Source: an uncultured Acidobacteriota bacterium
GTDB lineage: Bacteria; Acidobacteriota; Terriglobia; Terriglobales; Acidobacteriaceae
Assembly (NCBI GenBank): GCA_963841655.1
Contig: CAWJDR010000003.1
Span: 74,854-138,853, forward strand
Reading direction: 5' to 3'
Length of the DNA: 64,000 nt
Shown: positions 43,485-50,484 of the stretch, piece after piece
Position numbering within the stretch: the stretch's first letter is position 1
Layout: each line of letters begins with the position of its first letter
Program-made: the position numbers and the translations under genes
Notes under the pieces: model-generated
Seen by the model: the letters and a program-made list of their open reading frames with translations, nothing else
Database searches by the model: none
What the model was told of the DNA's origin: nothing

Positions 43485-44354
43485 TACATCACCACCTTAT
43501 TCAGCGGATATTCGACGATCCCTTGGGCTTGAGCGGCCTTCAGCCGGGGAATCACCTGCCACGCCTCCGACTCTTCGATCACCGTATTGACCGCAACCCA
43601 CTCGCCGTCGCTCAAGGTCGATATTGTCGGCTTCTTCAGAGCAGGCAAAACGGCGAGTACGCCGTCAAGGTTCTCCTTGCGGACATTCAACATCAGCCCC
43701 ACCCGATCCTGGGCTTCCATCGCGCCACGCAGCATTAGCGCCAGATTCTCGATCTTGCGTCGTTTCTCTGCGGTCGGCCCACGCCGACTTGTTTGCAATT
43801 AGCTGTGTGTTTGATTCGAGCACCGTTTCCAATATTCGTAGCCGATTCGCCTTCAGAGAACTGCCAGTCTCCGTCACCTCGACGATCGCGTCGGCCAACA
43901 TCGGCGGCTTCACTTCGGTGGCGCCCCAGGAAAACTCCACTTGCACATCAATACTTTTGCCACGAAAGTAGTTGCGCGTGACGTTCACAAGTTCGGTGGC
44001 GATGATCCGTCCGGAAAGATCTTCGGCGCGGCGGAACGGAGAATCCTCTGGTGCAGCCAGAACCCATCTCACTTTTCCACGACTGCGCTTCGCATAAATC
44101 AAGTCGGCGACGGCGACGACGTCCAGGCCGCTCTCAACCACCCAGTCCAGGCCGGTGAGACCGGCGTCCAGCGCGCCATGCTCGACGTAGCGAGCCATTT
44201 CCTGGGCACGGATCAGCATGCACTCGATTTCGGGATCGGCCGTCTCTGCGAAGTAGGATCGTGCGCTCGTATAAACTTCGAGACCCGCCCGTGCAAAAAG
44301 CTGAAGCGTCGCTTCCTGTAAGCTGCCTTTGGGGATCCCGATGCGTAGTTTCAT
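43484..44354 (-). pseudogene. hisG: ATP phosphoribosyltransferase, long form; one frameshift as assembled
   Basis: Start [17 protein letters not shown] at 44354 (ATGA overlap with hisI). The catalytic part lies in ORF 43665..44420. The C-terminal regulatory domain ([28 protein letters not shown]...) lies in ORF 43484..43798. The shift is at about 43768-43780. Confidence 0.88.
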
Positions 44355-44719
44355 CGTTGGACCTCCTGCGTACTTGCCGACGATGCTGCAGAGGAGAGCG
44401 GAATCTCTTCGGTGAAGCACGAGCGGGTTCCCAAGTGGCAGACCACCCCTGCTCCCTCTACTTGCACTCGCACGAGAAACGAATCACGATCGCAGTCCGT
44501 GCTTACCGAAATGACCCTCAACCGGTTGCCCGAGCTTTCCCCCTTGGTCCAGAGCTGGTTGCGAGTCCTGCTGAAGAAGGTGACATATCCCGAACTCAGC
44601 GTGTGCTGAAAGGCTTCCTCATTCATGAAGCCGAGCATCAGGATTTCGGCAGAGGCAGCGTCTTGCACAATGGCCGGTACCAAGCCCTGCATCTTCTCGA
44701 AGTCAATTTCCATATGCAC
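44351..44719 (-). CDS. hisI: phosphoribosyl-AMP cyclohydrolase (monofunctional HisI)
   Basis: 122 aa. [46 protein letters not shown] lies upstream. The start may be the ATG at 44713. Confidence 0.9.
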
Positions 44720-44747
44720 CCGTGCCTCCTGTTTCCGAAAAGTAAAA

Positions 44748-44778
44748 AGCCCGCTGACCTTGTTAGCGTCAGCGGGCT
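44748..44778 (-). terminator. his operon attenuator (rho-independent terminator between leader ORF and hisI)
   Basis: Perfect 11-bp stem AGCCCGCTGAC / GTCAGCGGGCT with a 9-nt loop. On the minus strand it is followed by TTTTTACTTTT. About 28 nt upstream of the hisI start. Confidence 0.8.
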
Positions 44779-44803
44779 GAATCTCGATGAGTGCTGGTCT
44801 ATC

Positions 44804-44872
44804 TCAGGAATGCACCCCCGCCGACGCGCTATGCGCGTGATGATGATGGCGGTGATGGCGATGAGACAACAT
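44804..44872 (-). CDS. his operon leader peptide (22 aa, MLSHRHHRHHHHAHSASAGVHS)
   Basis: ATG 44872-70, TGA 44806-04. 8 His codons fall within residues 4-14. GTCGGCGGG (44825-44817, codons SASAG) can pair, with one G-U, to CCCGCTGAC of the terminator 5' arm. Confidence 0.8.
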   Translation of the reverse strand: MLSHRHHRHHHHAHSASAGVHS

Positions 44873-44883
44873 CGGCAAGAGGG

Positions 44884-44912
44884 AGATTAGTAGAAGCGCT
44901 TGGCCGAGTCAA
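44884..44912 (-). promoter_or_regulatory. candidate sigma70-type promoter of the his leader/operon
   Basis: Minus strand TTGACT (44912-07), 17 nt, TAATCT (44889-84). Only 11 nt separate the -10 box from the leader ATG, and no Shine-Dalgarno sequence is present. Confidence 0.55.
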
Positions 44913-44991
44913 ACATTGAAAGTGGAGCGCAACCTCCAATATTTCGATTCCAGCCATCTGAATTTTGAATGCCGGGCCAGGCAGAACGATG

Positions 44992-45020
44992 TTGACAGGA
45001 TTTCCACAAGTCTCTAGTAT
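44992..45020 (+). promoter_or_regulatory. candidate sigma70-type promoter of the Cys leader / sulfite reductase operon
   Basis: TTGACA (44992-97), 17 nt, TAGTAT (45015-20). The leader ATG lies 9 nt after the -10 box, and no Shine-Dalgarno sequence is present. Confidence 0.6.
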
Positions 45021-45029
45021 CTGCAGATC

Positions 45030-45119
45030 ATGTTGGCTTGCTGCCAGATCTGCATCGCGTGTTGTTGTACTTGTTGTTGTACGCGTGCGTGTTCTGGCGC
45101 AGGGAGGCTGCTGACCTAA
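45030..45119 (+). CDS. cysteine-rich leader peptide (29 aa, MLACCQICIACCCTCCCTRACSGAGRLLT)
   Basis: ATG 45030, TAA 45117-19. 10 Cys codons, including two TGT-TGT-TGT runs. The ORF sits between a consensus-like promoter and a strong terminator abutting the sulfite reductase start. Confidence 0.75.
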   Translation: MLACCQICIACCCTCCCTRACSGAGRLLT

Positions 45120-45144
45120 TAAGTCCTTAAGAATCAGCAATTAT

Positions 45145-45188
45145 AGCCCACCGCCAGAGACATATCTGGCGGTGGGCTTTTTGTTTTT
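45145..45188 (+). terminator. attenuator (rho-independent terminator) immediately upstream of the sulfite reductase gene
   Basis: Perfect 14-bp stem AGCCCACCGCCAGA (45145-58) / TCTGGCGGTGGGCT (45165-78) with a 6-nt loop, then TTTTTGTTTTT ending at the ATG at 45189. 45093-45109 (TCTGGCGCAGGGAGGCT) mimics the 3' arm. Confidence 0.8.
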
Positions 45189-46892
45189 ATGACAATTCCA
45201 GCCAAAGAGACGAAGGCACAACGGGTCGAGCGACTCAAGCGGGAGAAGAACCCGTGGGAGGGGCTCGACGAGATTCGCCGGTTCGGGCGCGAGGGGTTTA
45301 GCTCGATTCCGCCCGAATGGATCGGAACGTACTTCCGCTGGTGGGGCGTCTATACCCAGGGGGACGGTGCCGGCGTCATTGGTGGTAAGGGCGGGGAAGG
45401 CAAGGCTCTGCCTTACTTCATGGTGCGAATCCGGATTCCGAATGGTTTGCTTGAAGCGCACCAGCTCCGCACGATTGCCGACGTTACGGCTCGTTACGCT
45501 CGTGGCGCGGCCGATCTTACCGTGCGACAGAATGTCCAGCTTCACTGGGTGACCATCGAAGCCCTCCCCGAAGTTCTCGATGCTCTCTGGCGGGCTGGAC
45601 TCACTACCAAGGGCTCCTGCGGCGACGATACCCGCAACATTACTGGATGCCCATTAGCGGGAGTGGACGCCGACGAAATCTTCGATGCGTCTGCGCTTGC
45701 CCTCGAAGCCAATCAATTCTTTGTCGGTAACGCCGAGTTCTACAACCTCCCCCGAAAATTCAAGATCTGCATCACGGGATGCCGGTCCTGGTGCGCCTAC
45801 CCCGAAATCAATGACGTGGGCCTGACCGCTGTAACGCGGCGCACACGCGGTGAGCAGGAAGTCGGGTTCTCTCTTCGTGTTGCTGGCGGCCTCTCGACCG
45901 ATCCCCATCTTGCCGCGCGACTCAACGCGTTCGTCAAACAGGAACAGGTTATTCCTGTTCTGAAGGGGATTGCCGAGATATTCCGTGACAGTGACGTACT
46001 TCGTGAAAACCGCGAGCGGGCTCGCCTGAAATTCCTCTTCCTGAAGCACGGTTGGACGTCCGAAACATTCCAAACGGAGCTCGAGCGCCGCATCGGATTT
46101 GAGCTCGATCCGGCGGCTGACGAGCACGTTCCCAATGACCTGTATCGCGATCACGTCGGAATTCACGCTCAGAAACAGCCAGGATATTTCTTTGTGGGGG
46201 CAGCCGTGTTGCGCGGGCGAATCACGGCCGACCAGATGCGGACCGCAGCCGATCTAGCCGACCGGTTTGCCGACGGGCACTTGCGCACCACGAACATGCA
46301 GAACCTCCTGATCGTCAACGTGCCGCGACAAAATGTGGACCCGCTAGTGAGAGAACTGGACGCAGTCGGCCTGCGGGTGAACGGCTCAGCCTTTTGGCGC
46401 GGTGCTGTCGCCTGCAGTGGCTCAGAGTTCTGCAAACTTGCGATCACTGAAACCAAGAGCTTCTCGCGCTGGCTCGTGGAGGAACTGGAAGAGAGATTGC
46501 CCGGCTTTGAGCAGCACCTGAAACTGCACGTCACCGGTTGCCCGAACAGCTGCGGTCAGCATTGGATCGCCGATTTGGGGATCGAGGGCAAGAAAATCAA
46601 GGTCGGCGATCGGATGGAGGATGCTTACTACTTTTGCGTGGGGGGAGCAGTAGGCTTGCACCAGTCTATCGCCCGTCCGGTTGGCTATCGATGCCTCGCA
46701 ACCGAGGTTCCGGATGCGATCGAGCGCCTGCTGAGGCGCTATCTTGACGATCGATATCCCAACGAAAACCTGCGACAGTTCTTCGCGCGGCACAACGACA
46801 TCGAACTGCGGGAATTTCTGGCCGGTGAACTGGTGGCAGCGGTTGCGCGCGATGCCTCCCCCGGACGAGTTCCGCACGGAGTGGAGGGATAG
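45189..46892 (+). CDS. sir: assimilatory sulfite reductase (ferredoxin-type NirA/Sir hemoprotein)
   Basis: 567 aa. Duplicated nitrite/sulfite reductase ferredoxin-like and 4Fe-4S/siroheme domains (GSCGDDTRNITGCP, ACSGSEFCKLA, VTGCPNSCGQH). Confidence 0.9.
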   Translation: MTIPAKETKAQRVERLKREKNPWEGLDEIRRFGREGFSSIPPEWIGTYFRWWGVYTQGDGAGVIGGKGGEGKALPYFMVRIRIPNGLLEAHQLRTIADVTARYARGAADLTVRQNVQLHWVTIEALPEVLDALWRAGLTTKGSCGDDTRNITGCPLAGVDADEIFDASALALEANQFFVGNAEFYNLPRKFKICITGCRSWCAYPEINDVGLTAVTRRTRGEQEVGFSLRVAGGLSTDPHLAARLNAFVKQEQVIPVLKGIAEIFRDSDVLRENRERARLKFLFLKHGWTSETFQTELERRIGFELDPAADEHVPNDLYRDHVGIHAQKQPGYFFVGAAVLRGRITADQMRTAADLADRFADGHLRTTNMQNLLIVNVPRQNVDPLVRELDAVGLRVNGSAFWRGAVACSGSEFCKLAITETKSFSRWLVEELEERLPGFEQHLKLHVTGCPNSCGQHWIADLGIEGKKIKVGDRMEDAYYFCVGGAVGLHQSIARPVGYRCLATEVPDAIERLLRRYLDDRYPNENLRQFFARHNDIELREFLAGELVAAVARDASPGRVPHGVEG

Positions 46893-46901
46893 GTCACGGC
46901 T

Positions 46902-47531
46902 ATGAGTCTATTTCCAATGTTCTTGAAACTCGAAGATCGGCATTGCCTGGTGGTGGGAGCGGGCAAGATCGGCGAATCCAAGATTCGCAGTCTGCTGGTG
47001 GCCCGTGCCAAGGTTCGGGTCATTGCGCCATGGGCTACGCCGACTGTGACCGCGTGGGCGCTTGCTGGCTTGTTGGATTGGGAAGCCCGCACTTTCCAAG
47101 CTGACGATCTGAACTCGATCTTTTTGGTCGTGGGCGCGACTTCCTCCATCGAAGTTAATGATGCAGTCTACCGTGAAGCACGGAGCCGCCAGATCCTTTG
47201 CAATATCGTGGACGATCCTGAGCGGTGCGATTTTTACTATCCCTCGGTTGTTCGGCGTGGTGATCTGCAGGTTGCCATCTCGACTGCCGGACAGAGTCCA
47301 GCTCTTGCACAACGGTTGCGTCGCGAGTTCGAAGCACAGTTGGCGCCTGTCTATGCGGGCTGGCTAGACGAACTCGGGAAGACCCGGAAAGACTTGTTTG
47401 CCAGCCCGATCGATCCAGAATCTCGGCGTTCACTGCTGCACACAGCGGCTAGCCGGCAGTCGTTCGATGCTCGCCAGGCCGCTCGCGAGTTGAACGAACA
47501 CGCTCGCGGCGAGGTCACCCATGAACGGTAA
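46902..47531 (+). CDS. precorrin-2 dehydrogenase / sirohydrochlorin ferrochelatase (CysG N-terminal-like)
   Basis: 209 aa. MSLFPMFLKLEDRHCLVVGAGKIGESK Rossmann fold and the motif ISTAGQSPALA. Confidence 0.85.
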   Translation: MSLFPMFLKLEDRHCLVVGAGKIGESKIRSLLVARAKVRVIAPWATPTVTAWALAGLLDWEARTFQADDLNSIFLVVGATSSIEVNDAVYREARSRQILCNIVDDPERCDFYYPSVVRRGDLQVAISTAGQSPALAQRLRREFEAQLAPVYAGWLDELGKTRKDLFASPIDPESRRSLLHTAASRQSFDARQAARELNEHARGEVTHER

Positions 47532-48318
47532 AGTCTTTTTGGTTGGCGCTGGTCCCGGCGATCCCGACTTGCTTACGGTCAAGGCCGTCCGGCTTCTGCA
47601 ATCGGCTGATGTTGTGCTGCATGACGATCTGATCAGCCCAGAGATTCTTGCATCGATCCCAAAAACCACCGAGGTTCGCAACGTTGGCAAGCGCTGCGGA
47701 CGAAAAAACATTCAGCAGGAAGAAATCAATGCTCTCCTCGTTACATTCGCATCGTTTGGGCTCAAAGTGGTCCGCTTGAAAGCAGGCGATCCTCTGATCT
47801 TTGGGCGTGCAGGCGAGGAGATGGAAGCGCTCCGTAAGGCGAACATCGATTTCGAAATCGTTCCGGGCGTGACTTCGGCGTTGGCATCAGCAGCGGCCGC
47901 ACGTGTTTCGTTGACCCACCGTGACTCTGCGTCAGCTGTTCTTTTCCTTACCGGTCATCATGCCAAGCCTGCGCGGGCAGTCGACTGGACAGCATACGTC
48001 GCGTCGGGAGCAACTCTTGCCATCTACATGCCTGGGTCGGACTATCAACACATCAGCGAACAGCTGATTGCCGCAGGACTCAAGGGTGAGACGGCCTGCG
48101 CGATCGTGTCGCGCGCTAGTTCGCATGCGGAACAGGTGCATCGCAGCACCATCAAGCAGCTGGCCAGCGCACCTCTATTGCCGGCGCCAACGCTGCTGCT
48201 GGTGGGCGATGCTCTCAATATGCCGGATGCCGTTCAATTCCAGGTGGAAGCCGCCGTCAATGTGCTGCCAACAGTGTCCGACAGCTTCACCAATAACCAG
48301 GTGTTTGTAGGTGACTAG
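47521..48318 (+). CDS. cobA: uroporphyrinogen-III C-methyltransferase
   Basis: 265 aa. VFLVGAGPGDPDLLTVKA, VVRLKAGDPLIFGRAGEE, VPGVTSA. Confidence 0.92.
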   Translation: MNGKVFLVGAGPGDPDLLTVKAVRLLQSADVVLHDDLISPEILASIPKTTEVRNVGKRCGRKNIQQEEINALLVTFASFGLKVVRLKAGDPLIFGRAGEEMEALRKANIDFEIVPGVTSALASAAAARVSLTHRDSASAVLFLTGHHAKPARAVDWTAYVASGATLAIYMPGSDYQHISEQLIAAGLKGETACAIVSRASSHAEQVHRSTIKQLASAPLLPAPTLLLVGDALNMPDAVQFQVEAAVNVLPTVSDSFTNNQVFVGD

Positions 48319-48327
48319 GAGCCAAGT

Positions 48328-49065
48328 GTGAACGAGATCGTGGAAAGAACGCAGGCGCTAGCCGAGAGTTGGAGTGTCCAGGAGTTGTTGCAATGGTCTT
48401 TCAAGACCTTCGGCAATGGTGTCGAGATGGCATCGGGCTTTGGCGTAGAAGGTATGGTTCTGATTGATATCGCGACACGGGTCAATCCCAAGCTTCGCGT
48501 CTTCACAATCGATACAGACTTCCTCTTCCCGGAAACGTACGAACTCATTGAAAGAACCGAACGACGCTATGGTCTCAAGATTGAAAGACTGCGCTCCCTG
48601 ACCCCGGAAGATCAGGCGGAAATCTATGGGCCGGCACTGTGGCGCTCCAATCCGGATCAGTGCTGCGGGTTGCGCAAAGTGGCGCCCTTGGCTGAAAAAT
48701 TGTCTGGCCTGCGCGCCTGGATCACAGCCATCCGGCGCGCCCAGACTTCGGCTCGAGCTAAGGCACGCAAGGTGGAGTGGGACGAAAAATTCCAATTGGT
48801 GAAGATCAATCCCATCGTCGACTGGAGCAGTGAGCAGGTGTGGAATTACGTCCATTCGCACGATGTGCCCTACAACCCCCTGCATGATTCTGACTACCCC
48901 AGTATAGGCTGCACACATTGCACGCGTGCGATTCGCCCCGGCGAAGATGCTCGCGCGGGACGCTGGGCGGGGTCTCAGAAAACCGAGTGCGGCCTGCACT
49001 TGCCCGATCCGCCGGTCATGCCCTCCCCCCTTGTTCAGTTGGGTGATGGCGGATCTCAAGGTTAG
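48328..49065 (+). CDS. cysH: adenylyl-sulfate/phosphoadenylyl-sulfate reductase (thioredoxin-dependent; Fe-S type Cys pattern)
   Basis: 245 aa. PAPS_reduct fold, CC..RKV plus GCTHCT cysteine pairs (pattern of the APS-reductase subclass), and C-terminal ECGLH. Confidence 0.9.
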   Translation: MNEIVERTQALAESWSVQELLQWSFKTFGNGVEMASGFGVEGMVLIDIATRVNPKLRVFTIDTDFLFPETYELIERTERRYGLKIERLRSLTPEDQAEIYGPALWRSNPDQCCGLRKVAPLAEKLSGLRAWITAIRRAQTSARAKARKVEWDEKFQLVKINPIVDWSSEQVWNYVHSHDVPYNPLHDSDYPSIGCTHCTRAIRPGEDARAGRWAGSQKTECGLHLPDPPVMPSPLVQLGDGGSQG

Positions 49066-49258
49066 GAGACCGGTGTGAACAGTCGCACGAAGGCGACTTC
49101 CGCAAGTCATCATTGGTGTTTTTGTTATTTGTGTTTTTCAATCGACGTGTCCCCCGTCTGACGCCTTCCCGCGTTGCTCACCTAAACAGTTAAGTTCGAG
49201 TGCCGCCCCAAAAGAGACCAGCCCGCATCGCCTATGGCACACTGATGCTGGAGGCGGA

Positions 49259-50095
49259 ATGAACATTCTGGAGTTCACCATGCTGGTGGGGCTCGGGTCT
49301 TTCCTTGCCGGATTTCTGGGGGCGCTAACTGGCCTTGGCGGCGGAGTTGTGCTCGTGCCCCTACTCACCTTGCTATTTAAGGTCGACATCCGGTACGCGG
49401 TGGGAGCTTCGCTCGTATCGGTCATCGCAACTTCCTCCGGAGCCGCCGCCGCCTACTTGAAGGATGGATTTTCCAACATCCGCATCGGAATGTTTTTGGA
49501 AATCGCCACGACACTAGGCGCACTTTTCGGGGCCTTCCTGGCCGCAAGTGTCTCGACTACCGCGATTGGTGTTGTGTTCGGTCTAGTGCTGCTCTATTCC
49601 GGCTATCTTTCCAGCCGGACCCCAGCTGAGTCTCCGGGTGACGATTTTCCTGACCCGTTAGCTACTCGTCTCGGGATGAACGGCACCTACCCTTCCTTGA
49701 GCGGCCCCAGGCAATACTATGTCCACCGCGTGCCGCTTGGTTTCAGCTTGATGTTCGGGGCCGGGACTCTCTCGGGCCTATTGGGGATCGGTTCAGGGGC
49801 TGTCAAAGTTCTGGCCATGGACCAGGCGATGGGGGTTCCTTTCAAGGTTTCGACCACGACCAGCAACTTCATGATTGGAGTGACTGCCGCGGCGAGCGCA
49901 GGAGTGTATCTCAGCCGAGGCTACATTGATCCCGGACTGTCGATGCCCGTGATGCTCGGTGTTCTGGCCGGCTCGCTGGTGGGCGCCCGAGTCCTGGCGC
50001 GGACGAAGACACAGCAATTGCGGCTGGTGTTCGCTGTGGTAATCGCCGCGCTTGGCGTCGAAATGATCTATGGTGCGTTCAGCGGAAAATTCTAA
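49259..50095 (+). CDS. TauE/SafE (TSUP) family sulfite/sulfo-anion transporter
   Basis: 278 aa. Polytopic, with duplicated GxGGG-containing halves (GALTGLGGGVVLVP; GLLGIGSGAV). Confidence 0.8.
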   Translation: MNILEFTMLVGLGSFLAGFLGALTGLGGGVVLVPLLTLLFKVDIRYAVGASLVSVIATSSGAAAAYLKDGFSNIRIGMFLEIATTLGALFGAFLAASVSTTAIGVVFGLVLLYSGYLSSRTPAESPGDDFPDPLATRLGMNGTYPSLSGPRQYYVHRVPLGFSLMFGAGTLSGLLGIGSGAVKVLAMDQAMGVPFKVSTTTSNFMIGVTAAASAGVYLSRGYIDPGLSMPVMLGVLAGSLVGARVLARTKTQQLRLVFAVVIAALGVEMIYGAFSGKF

Positions 50096-50097
50096 TC

Positions 50098-50484
50098 ATG
50101 TTGCGCAAAGCTGACTGGACGGATCAGAAAGTCGAAGTTATCATCGCGAACCTGTTGCGTGCCGGTGTGACTCTGTCTGCAGCCGTCGTGCTTGCTGGGG
50201 GCGTGGTGTTCTTAGTCCGCCATGGACTTGCCCGCGCGAGCTACCAGGTGTTCGTTGGGGAAGCAACCGACCTGCGGCATTGGATGGGTATTGCGCGCGC
50301 CGCATTTGCCCTGCGCGGTCGCGGAATTATCCAGTTGGGCTTGTTGTTCTTGATTGCAACTCCGGTCGCGCGCGTAGCTTTTGCTGCCTTTGCATTCGCC
50401 ATGGAGCGAGACTGGCGATACGTGGGCATCTCCACCTTTGTGCTTCTCGTGCTCCTGTATAGCCTGCTTGGACCTGGGGTTTGA
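50098..50484 (+). CDS. DUF1634-like small membrane protein
   Basis: 128 aa with 3-4 TM helices. 2 nt after the TauE gene, a pairing I recall as common. Assigned by context and architecture only. Confidence 0.5.
   Translation: MLRKADWTDQKVEVIIANLLRAGVTLSAAVVLAGGVVFLVRHGLARASYQVFVGEATDLRHWMGIARAAFALRGRGIIQLGLLFLIATPVARVAFAAFAFAMERDWRYVGISTFVLLVLLYSLLGPGV

Follow-up and report, generated by a model that had tools for sequence, protein, structure and literature searches.

A putative cysteine-sensing transcription attenuator upstream of the sulfite reductase operon in Terriglobales and its relatives with exchanged regulatory codons

Gene regulation in the soil-abundant Acidobacteria is almost uncharted, and the locus described here raises the question of what a short, cysteine-rich open reading frame (ORF) and a strong hairpin are doing immediately upstream of a sulfite reductase gene, sir. 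The locus belongs to an uncultured bacterium of the order Terriglobales, family Acidobacteriaceae (assembly GCA_963841655.1, contig CAWJDR010000003.1, positions 74,854 to 138,853, forward strand); this whole stretch of 64,000 nt is referred to below as the window. The element is probably a classical ribosome-mediated transcription attenuator which senses cysteine or, strictly speaking, Cys-tRNA(Cys), a reading to which we would assign a probability of roughly 85% from the sequences compared. Its elements, their conservation and their capacity for alternative pairings were seen directly. The parts of the leader are as follows.

44992-44997, plus strand: -35 hexamer TTGACA of the leader promoter (sequence reading and promoter scan)
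45015-45020, plus strand: -10 hexamer TAGTAT, after a 17-nt spacer, ending 9 nt short of the leader ATG
45030-45119, plus strand: leader ORF MLACCQICIACCCTCCCTRACSGAGRLLT, 29 codons with 10 Cys, from the ATG at 45030 to the TAA at 45117-19
45037-45061, plus strand: region 1, the putative anti-antiterminator, which in the absence of a ribosome pairs with region 2 and the flank 5' of it (minimum free energy, MFE, structures)
45060-45080, plus strand: regulatory codons TGT TGT TGT ACT TGT TGT TGT, the proposed stall site
45093-45104, plus strand: region 2, TCTGGCG (45093-99) and GGG (45102-04), in leader codons 22-25, complementary to the 5' arm of the terminator
45109-45139, plus strand: inner hairpin (45109-14 with 45134-39), with the stop codon in its loop, stacking within the antiterminator
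45145-45158, plus strand: region 3, 5' arm of the terminator, AGCCCACCGCCAGA (sequence and hairpin search)
45165-45178, plus strand: region 4, 3' arm of the terminator, TCTGGCGGTGGGCT (sequence and hairpin search)
45179-45188, plus strand: U-tract TTTTGTTTTT, following the paired T at 45178 and ending at the sir ATG

The leader promoter scored 10 of 12 in a consensus scan. The regulatory codons form two TGT triplet runs (45060-68 and 45072-80), the last Cys codon is located at 45090-92, and a second in-frame TAA (45120-22) directly follows the leader stop codon, 13-24 nt upstream of which lies region 2. The hairpin is a perfect helix of 14 bp with 10 G-C pairs and a 6-nt loop, and its stem is followed by TTTTTGTTTTT, reaching the sir ATG at 45189. 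A first-pass annotation of this DNA had reported the promoter, the 29-codon ORF with 10 Cys, the hairpin and the T-tract, as well as the similarity of 45093-45109 (TCTGGCGCAGGGAGGCT) to the 3' arm of the terminator, and all of these are present at those coordinates. The cysteine content is exceptional: in six frames of the whole 64 kb, this is the sole stretch with at least six Cys in 12 codons, the leader ORF is the most Cys-rich among the 954 short ORFs of the window, and base composition predicts 10 or more Cys within 28 codons with a probability of about 6e-9. The 169-nt leader also folds more stably than its dinucleotide shuffles (z = -5.2). The stem was considered as a genome-wide repeat or uptake-sequence-like terminator as well, which was rejected for this stretch: its 10-mer occurs exactly only in the two arms, occurrences with one mismatch in the window are at chance level (9 observed, 6.3 expected), and no similar inverted repeats were found in the window.

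In the MFE structure of the leader, about 45037-61 pairs with 45080-45108, and both the inner hairpin and the terminator are formed; as modelled, this fold is the repressing state of a classical attenuator. A stalled ribosome was mimicked by removing the 5' part and withholding region 4 before refolding. Under this mimic, 45093-99 pair with CGCCAGA at 45152-58 and 45102-04 with CCC at 45147-49, and the resulting antiterminator encloses the inner hairpin. The comparison of energies that the first-pass annotation had called for gives -30.7 kcal/mol for the terminator hairpin against -20 to -25 kcal/mol for the antiterminator, which does form when the stall is imitated.

Classical attenuators sense Trp, His, Leu, Thr, Ile/Val and Phe, and a similar course of events may be proposed for cysteine, in which we infer from the sequence the start site, the translation of the leader, the stalling and the response in vivo. 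Transcription would start a few nucleotides before the leader ATG, and a ribosome would translate the 29 codons while RNA polymerase advances. When Cys-tRNA is plentiful, the ribosome would reach the stop codon, with region 2 inside it or re-paired with region 1 and with the inner hairpin melted; regions 3 and 4 would then form the 14-bp terminator, and transcription would end at the U-tract before sir. When Cys-tRNA is scarce, a ribosome stalled in the TGT runs (45060-45080) would cover region 1 and leave region 2 free to pair with region 3 before region 4 is made, so that the terminator would be blocked and the polymerase would read into sir, the siroheme genes and cysH. Sulfide for cysteine synthesis is the product of these downstream genes, and thus the leader codons correspond to the pathway's end product. 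The ribosome geometry suggested earlier, in which a ribosome at the stop codon covers the antiterminating segment, stands only in part: region 2 does lie within the last leader codons, but a ribosome at the stop would cover only its GGG part and melt the inner hairpin, TCTGGCG probably re-pairing with region 1 behind it.

Conservation was analysed in 80 species-representative genomes encoding Sir proteins of 72-90% identity, with flanks of ±3 kb, and the alignments and folds comprised 79 sequences. The best Sir homologues and all 80 loci belong to Acidobacteriota, order Terriglobales, except for a few listed under other phyla (Verrucomicrobiia, Eisenbacteria, Methylomirabilota and one unclassified bacterium). 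The Cys-run short ORF (sORF) and hairpin, for which a search upstream of orthologous sir genes had been recommended, were found in 78 of the 80 genomes, the sORF lying just 5' of sir with 8 Cys among 30 codons at the median; the two remaining loci, which lack a Cys leader, come from the Methylomirabilota bin and the unclassified bin. A conserved ORF of 69 amino acids with two CxxC pairs (…GKCPNCKT…AKCPRCKIW…) is located 5' of sir in sir loci without a Cys leader (L056:2646-2855 and L066:2650-2859).

This recurrence also bears on the simplest alternative, namely that the ORF arose by chance beside a neighbouring gene's terminator, for which only the general frequency of short ORFs (954 in the window) speaks. 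A his operon, running divergently on the opposite strand, is the upstream neighbour (with PRA-CH, HisG and histidinol dehydrogenase according to Pfam); thus no plus-strand gene ends here for which the hairpin could serve as terminator. Together with the P value of about 6e-9 and the presence of the ORF in nearly every genome compared, this refutes chance, to which we give practically no weight.

A promoter of the form TTGAC(A/G/C)-N17/18-TA(G/C)nAT abuts the leader ATG in 73 of the 79 sequences; the -10 element ends 9-10 nt from the ATG in 54 of these 73 loci and 6-7 nt from it in 10. A tetramer resembling a Shine-Dalgarno (SD) sequence precedes the leader ATG in only three of the 79. The proximity of the -10 element to the ATG and the scarcity of SD sequences suggest that the transcript is leaderless or near-leaderless, with a predicted 5' untranslated region of 0-4 nt.

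The G+C-rich stem (12-17 bp) and the T-run after it are kept in essentially all loci. In the alignment of 79 sequences pairing amounts to 94.5% in the terminator helix, where 8 pairs are changed on both sides, to 92% in the antiterminator and to 86% in the inner hairpin, one of whose pairs swaps among U-A, U-G and C-G. The helix of regions 1 and 2 is paired in 58-65% of the alignment cells in the register of the window; since it transfers poorly in this register, folds of the individual sequences were relied on. In these, upstream pairing of region 2 was obtained for 73 of 79 (the leader part having a median z of -1.6), the terminator for 78, and pairing of regions 2 and 3 for 77 once the stalled ribosome's footprint was masked and region 4 was left out as not yet transcribed. 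In 69-76 of the 79 sequences, the six core positions of regions 2, 3 and 4 are jointly invariant. Four rare variants of region 3 are accompanied by a compensating change in region 4, with region 2 still wobble-compatible, a pattern predicted for a strand that must pair with two partners.

Within the ±3 kb flanks of the 80 loci neither a second copy of the hairpin nor another Cys-run ORF was found, except at L063. This locus carries a second Cys sORF, MIKIPSQCCCCTAPCAGCCRPLCI (L063:7079-7153, plus strand), which is preceded by TTGGCA-17-TATCAT-10-ATG and followed by a different downstream sequence; the shared terminator has no obvious counterpart there. Some 250 nt downstream of this sORF is an ORF with the N-terminus …ISGLATDATGGAIPQATVRIIDTEKGAVRTV…, which by eye is similar to the CarboxypepD_reg/TonB-type receptor of locus L182.

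Does selection act on the peptide or on the RNA? The ORF might encode a functional Cys-rich micropeptide, for example a metal- or redox-active one, co-expressed with sir, the hairpin then being a terminator or stabiliser of the ordinary kind. At the peptide level, the Cys residues and the C-terminal SGAGRLLT are indeed kept, and functions in trans are known for some attenuator leader peptides (peTrpL). The codons of this conserved C-terminus (…SGAGRLLT), in region 2 and the inner hairpin, however, have third positions as conserved as the first and second ones, and their most variable third position, the final codon aside, is an unpaired base of an internal loop; conservation tracks RNA pairing and not codon position. 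The core TTGTTGTTGT is nearly invariant at the nucleotide level (alignment A1, columns 69-78), whereas the N-terminal half of the peptide varies freely among orthologues. The Cys codons are biased as well: TGT makes up 60% of them in the leaders (360 TGT, 240 TGC) but 9% in the adjacent sir genes (85 TGT, 844 TGC), where it is rare. A terminator between the ORF and the operon co-expressed with it would be sensible only if it were regulated, and the paralogous modules described below have Thr-rich rather than Cys-rich ORFs before aspartokinase-like genes. These observations point to a constraint on RNA pairing and not on the peptide, favour a regulatory leader over a Cys-rich peptide with a function of its own, and make the micropeptide very improbable. 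Selection for RNA structure and for slow decoding would account for the pattern of conservation and for the TGT bias. As for the bias itself, either the wobble-decoded codons sharpen the stall, or the U/G-rich run has to stay unpaired.

If the leader is regulatory, its output might be translational instead of transcriptional. In the mycobacterial kind of attenuation, the hairpin at 45145-45178 would occlude the ribosome-binding region of sir, stalling at Cys codons would open it, and termination would be minor. The dissected mycobacterial Cys sORF (Ms5788A) acts by this route, and the hairpin is 10 nt from the sir ATG in the window and at most 11 nt, within the footprint of a ribosome, in 19 of 70 loci. 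Nevertheless, occlusion needs no T-run, and the T-run after the G+C-rich stem is kept in essentially all loci; the spacing between hairpin and start codon is anything from 5 to 85 nt (median 21); no conserved SD sequence for sir is contained in the stem; and the same hairpin with its T-run precedes genes with quite different start regions. The conserved T-run, the variable spacing and the lack of an SD sequence in the stem indicate that termination is probably the conserved output. Occlusion of the ribosome-binding site as the sole mechanism was rejected on account of the conserved U-tract and the variable spacing, and a mainly translational switch appears unlikely.

Transcription attenuation remains our preferred reading, and several points weigh against it. 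The stems are almost invariant, which limits covariation and makes most pairs uninformative. The helix of regions 1 and 2 is poorly kept in a fixed register, and the median z of the individual folds is low, as given above. The -10 element ends 9-10 nt from the ATG, compared with the 6-7 nt expected for a strictly leaderless mRNA, and the leader would have to be translated without an SD sequence. Stalling at the last Cys codon (45090-92) would place the ribosome over region 2 and favour termination. Finally, where the hairpin is close to the sir ATG, as in the window and the 19 loci mentioned, an added translational effect is possible.

Further evidence came from a scan of metagenome contigs for the stem CCACCGCCAG-N3-9-CTGGCGGTGG, which returned 120 loci. 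About half of them are Cys leaders before sir. The same stem and T-run, with a homologous region 2 (…CGTGTCTTCTGG…GGGA…), were also found behind other Cys leaders and behind leaders rich in Thr, Ile and Ser, as listed below.

L156:4390, L160:6489 and L167:2020: Cys leader before cysH
L129:2608: Cys leader before a rhodanese gene
L162:746: Cys leader before a sirC-like gene
L164:3310: Cys leader before a gene for an NMT1/SsuA-like (sulfonate) binding protein
L091:1066 and L186:1644: Cys leader before a Porin_5 gene
L182:2643: Cys leader before a gene for a CarboxypepD_reg/OMP β-barrel (TonB-type) receptor
L099:2099, L107:7614, L108:10526, L113:1764, L122, L123:1758, L158:5619 and others: Thr/Ile/Ser leaders before an AA_kinase gene
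L081:1158, L083:3442, L084, L090, L124, L142 and others: Thr/Ile/Ser leaders before an AA_kinase gene

The additional Cys leaders comprise a second and a third type, for example …QKTxQACLCCTCC…SSGAG… and MFSNQNPGAGCVCCC…, and their position before several operons implies a putative ribosome-read cysteine regulon of many operons. For the porin and TonB-type receptor genes of this set, uptake of sulfur compounds is one possibility.

The Thr/Ile/Ser leaders (examples are MNTAIQKATRITSTGTGMSTRITCLLEDGIG and MLSIATKRITSKSSMSITSTTTKTTISASGAWRNS) precede two kinds of AA_kinase genes, both aspartokinase-like. On four contigs (L099, L107, L123 and L158) a Cys attenuator before sir and a Thr attenuator before a kinase gene occur together, about 5.5 kb apart. 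The same switch is predicted for the Thr members: of 32 full folds, 31 contain the terminator, and with the 5' part masked, all 32 pair region 3 with the 3' end of the leader ORF. The Thr and Cys modules suggest a paralogous family of attenuators with exchanged regulatory codons.

The window itself contains a further leader of this general design before the divergent his operon (44935-44720, minus strand).

44912-44907, minus strand: -35 hexamer TTGACT of the His leader promoter
44889-44884, minus strand: -10 hexamer TAATCT, 11 nt after which the ORF starts
44872-44804, minus strand: His leader MLSHRHHRHHHHAHSASAGVHS, 9 His in 22 codons, before hisI, hisG and hisD
44778-44749 (approximately), minus strand: G+C-rich terminator hairpin of the His leader
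44748-44744, minus strand: T-run after this hairpin, with the start of hisI at 44719

The terminator of the His leader differs from that of the Cys leader. Similar His leaders were identified in six related loci (L001-L003, L031, L040 and L044), and no match of the His leader to any Rfam leader family was found. In every class the enriched codon follows the downstream pathway, which is the strongest non-experimental argument for taking the ORFs as the probable sensors. The suggestion of the first-pass annotation, a trp/his/leu-type attenuation by charging of Cys-tRNA over sir, the siroheme genes and cysH, is thus supported by the conserved parts, by constraint at the level of RNA and by the sister leaders.

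The shared stem might also be read differently, namely as the target of a trans-acting factor (a protein, small RNA or ligand) that recognises the hairpin and region 2 and decides on termination, so that the Cys ORF would not be the sensor. The stem CCCACCGCCAG/CTGGCGGTGGG is unusually invariant and common to attenuators of different operons, which could mean a common binder. Operon-specific signals, though, cannot come from a single factor, and the codons do change from Cys to Thr/Ile exactly along with the downstream pathway; the invariance is expected anyway of a region 3 that has two partners, regions 2 and 4, and Rfam gave no match to a riboswitch or protein-binding leader. We therefore regard such a factor as highly unlikely.

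On balance, and with no more than modest confidence, we favour the view that the sir attenuator is a member of a paralogous, modular family of Terriglobales, in which a near-invariant cassette of region 2, terminator and U-tract was copied before many operons and re-specified by exchange of codons (Cys for the sulfur regulon, Thr/Ile for the two aspartokinase-like genes), with the sir leaders leaderless or near-leaderless. If this is true, the family would provide the first cysteine attenuator based on a terminator, assign a function to attenuators in Acidobacteriota for the first time, and be a rare visible case of attenuators of different specificity evolving from one another; the cassette common to Cys and Thr leaders would lend itself unusually well to studies of how attenuators spread and alter their specificity.

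Compared with the enterobacterial attenuators (trpL, hisL, leuL, thrL, ilvL and pheL), the element has the same short leader ORF with clustered codons for the end product, four regions with mutually exclusive pairings (2:3, 3:4 and a putative 1:2), and a predicted intrinsic terminator whose U-tract lies directly before the first gene, and the position of the ribosome would decide the outcome. It differs in that cysteine is probably the amino acid sensed, the leader is SD-less and starts a few nucleotides from the predicted start site, region 2 lies inside the last codons, 5' of the stop, and one terminator module is common to different operons; there is no similarity in sequence or to the Rfam models. 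The sister Thr leaders (…KRITS…TTT…) have features which we take to be reminiscent of E. coli thrL. A search of 43500-46500 against Rfam with E values up to 10 gave no match to Thr_leader (RF00506), to His, Trp or Leu leaders, to the T-box or to SAM riboswitches, and no relevant family reached the gathering score in 5 related loci. Judging from these searches, the element is not a homologue of any curated Rfam family.

The same task, switching on sulfur-assimilation genes when cysteine or sulfur is short, is performed by CysB in proteobacteria, by CymR in Bacillus and by Cys T-box and S-box/SAM riboswitches in Firmicutes, and T-box leaders read tRNA charging via a terminator/antiterminator switch. 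Unlike in these systems, the sensor here would be the translating ribosome and not a protein or an RNA binding tRNA or a ligand. To our knowledge, no enterobacterial attenuator senses cysteine, the enterobacterial cys genes being under CysB; we also know of no classical attenuator for cysteine, which has long been without one, and of no studied Cys sORFs other than those of mycobacteria, which act on translation.

Experimental evidence for cysteine-responsive attenuation is available for the leaderless polycysteine sORFs of Mycobacterium smegmatis (Canestrari et al. 2020, 10.1101/834739; Mol Microbiol 114:93), so that the first-pass statement that Cys leaders had only been predicted computationally in Actinobacteria is out of date. 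In the dissected M. smegmatis locus a very stable duplex sequesters the downstream SD sequence; the control is translational, with no intrinsic terminator, and the authors stated that attenuation by an upstream ORF had not been described for cysteine before (10.1101/834739). The element resembles these sORFs in having at least two consecutive Cys codons, in being the first cistron of a sulfur/cysteine operon without an SD sequence, in probably occurring at several loci per genome as a ribosome-read 'Cys ribulon', and in the proposed relief of repression by stalling at Cys codons. It differs in its conserved hairpin with a U-tract, its separate antiterminator and the lack of an SD sequence in the stem, and the two come from different phyla (Acidobacteriota and Actinomycetota) with no sequence relationship. 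On these predicted features, the element matches the mycobacterial sORFs at the sensing step and not at the output step. Cys leaders were also predicted before cys/cbs operons in Mycobacterium, Propionibacterium and Bifidobacterium, without terminators (Seliverstov et al. 2005, PMC1262725); those are likewise short ORFs with Cys runs near the stop and before cysteine genes, while the element described here appears to have all the components of a classical attenuator.

In a 2010 survey the attenuators predicted in Acidobacteria had no assigned function. Neither a terminator-type Cys attenuator nor a characterised acidobacterial attenuator was found in the literature, the coverage of which was incomplete, so that this absence is suggestive only. 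To this extent the earlier claim of novelty holds for the terminator-type and acidobacterial case, but the idea of sensing cysteine in this way has its precedent in mycobacteria. What is new is chiefly the cassette shared among leaders with swapped codons, and besides it a Cys version based on a terminator, the phylum and the lack of an SD sequence; the mechanism itself is textbook. A Cys attenuator with a terminator would extend the 'Cys ribulon' beyond Actinobacteria and to a transcriptional output, and the element would offer a testable handle on sulfur regulation in Terriglobales and a compact cysteine-responsive genetic part.

The genes downstream of the leader are the following; the first four are closely packed and span 45189-49065.

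45189-46892, plus strand: sir, a ferredoxin-type sulfite reductase with NIR_SIR domains (Pfam)
46902-47531, plus strand: sirC-like siroheme gene, NAD-binding (Pfam, ORF list)
47521-48318, plus strand: uroporphyrinogen methyltransferase, a tetrapyrrole methylase (Pfam, ORF list)
48328-49065, plus strand: cysH, PAPS_reduct, a PAPS/APS reductase (Pfam, ORF list)
49259-50484, plus strand: membrane protein of the TauE/SafE family and DUF1634 (Pfam)

The T-rich gap of 193 nt between cysH and the TauE/DUF1634 genes (49066-49258) contains …tcattggtgtttttgttatttgtgtttttcaatcg… and revealed no clear hairpin terminator or promoter; the TauE and DUF1634 genes may be on the same transcript as the sir operon. 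No recognisable SD sequence precedes sir, either in the window (45171-45191) or at the sir starts of L001-L080. In the window and the 19 of 70 loci mentioned, with a gap of 5-11 nt, the U-tract of the terminator continues right up to the sir ATG. On the read-through RNA, ribosomes may bind at the unstructured, U-rich leader or at GGUGGG of region 4 once it is freed.

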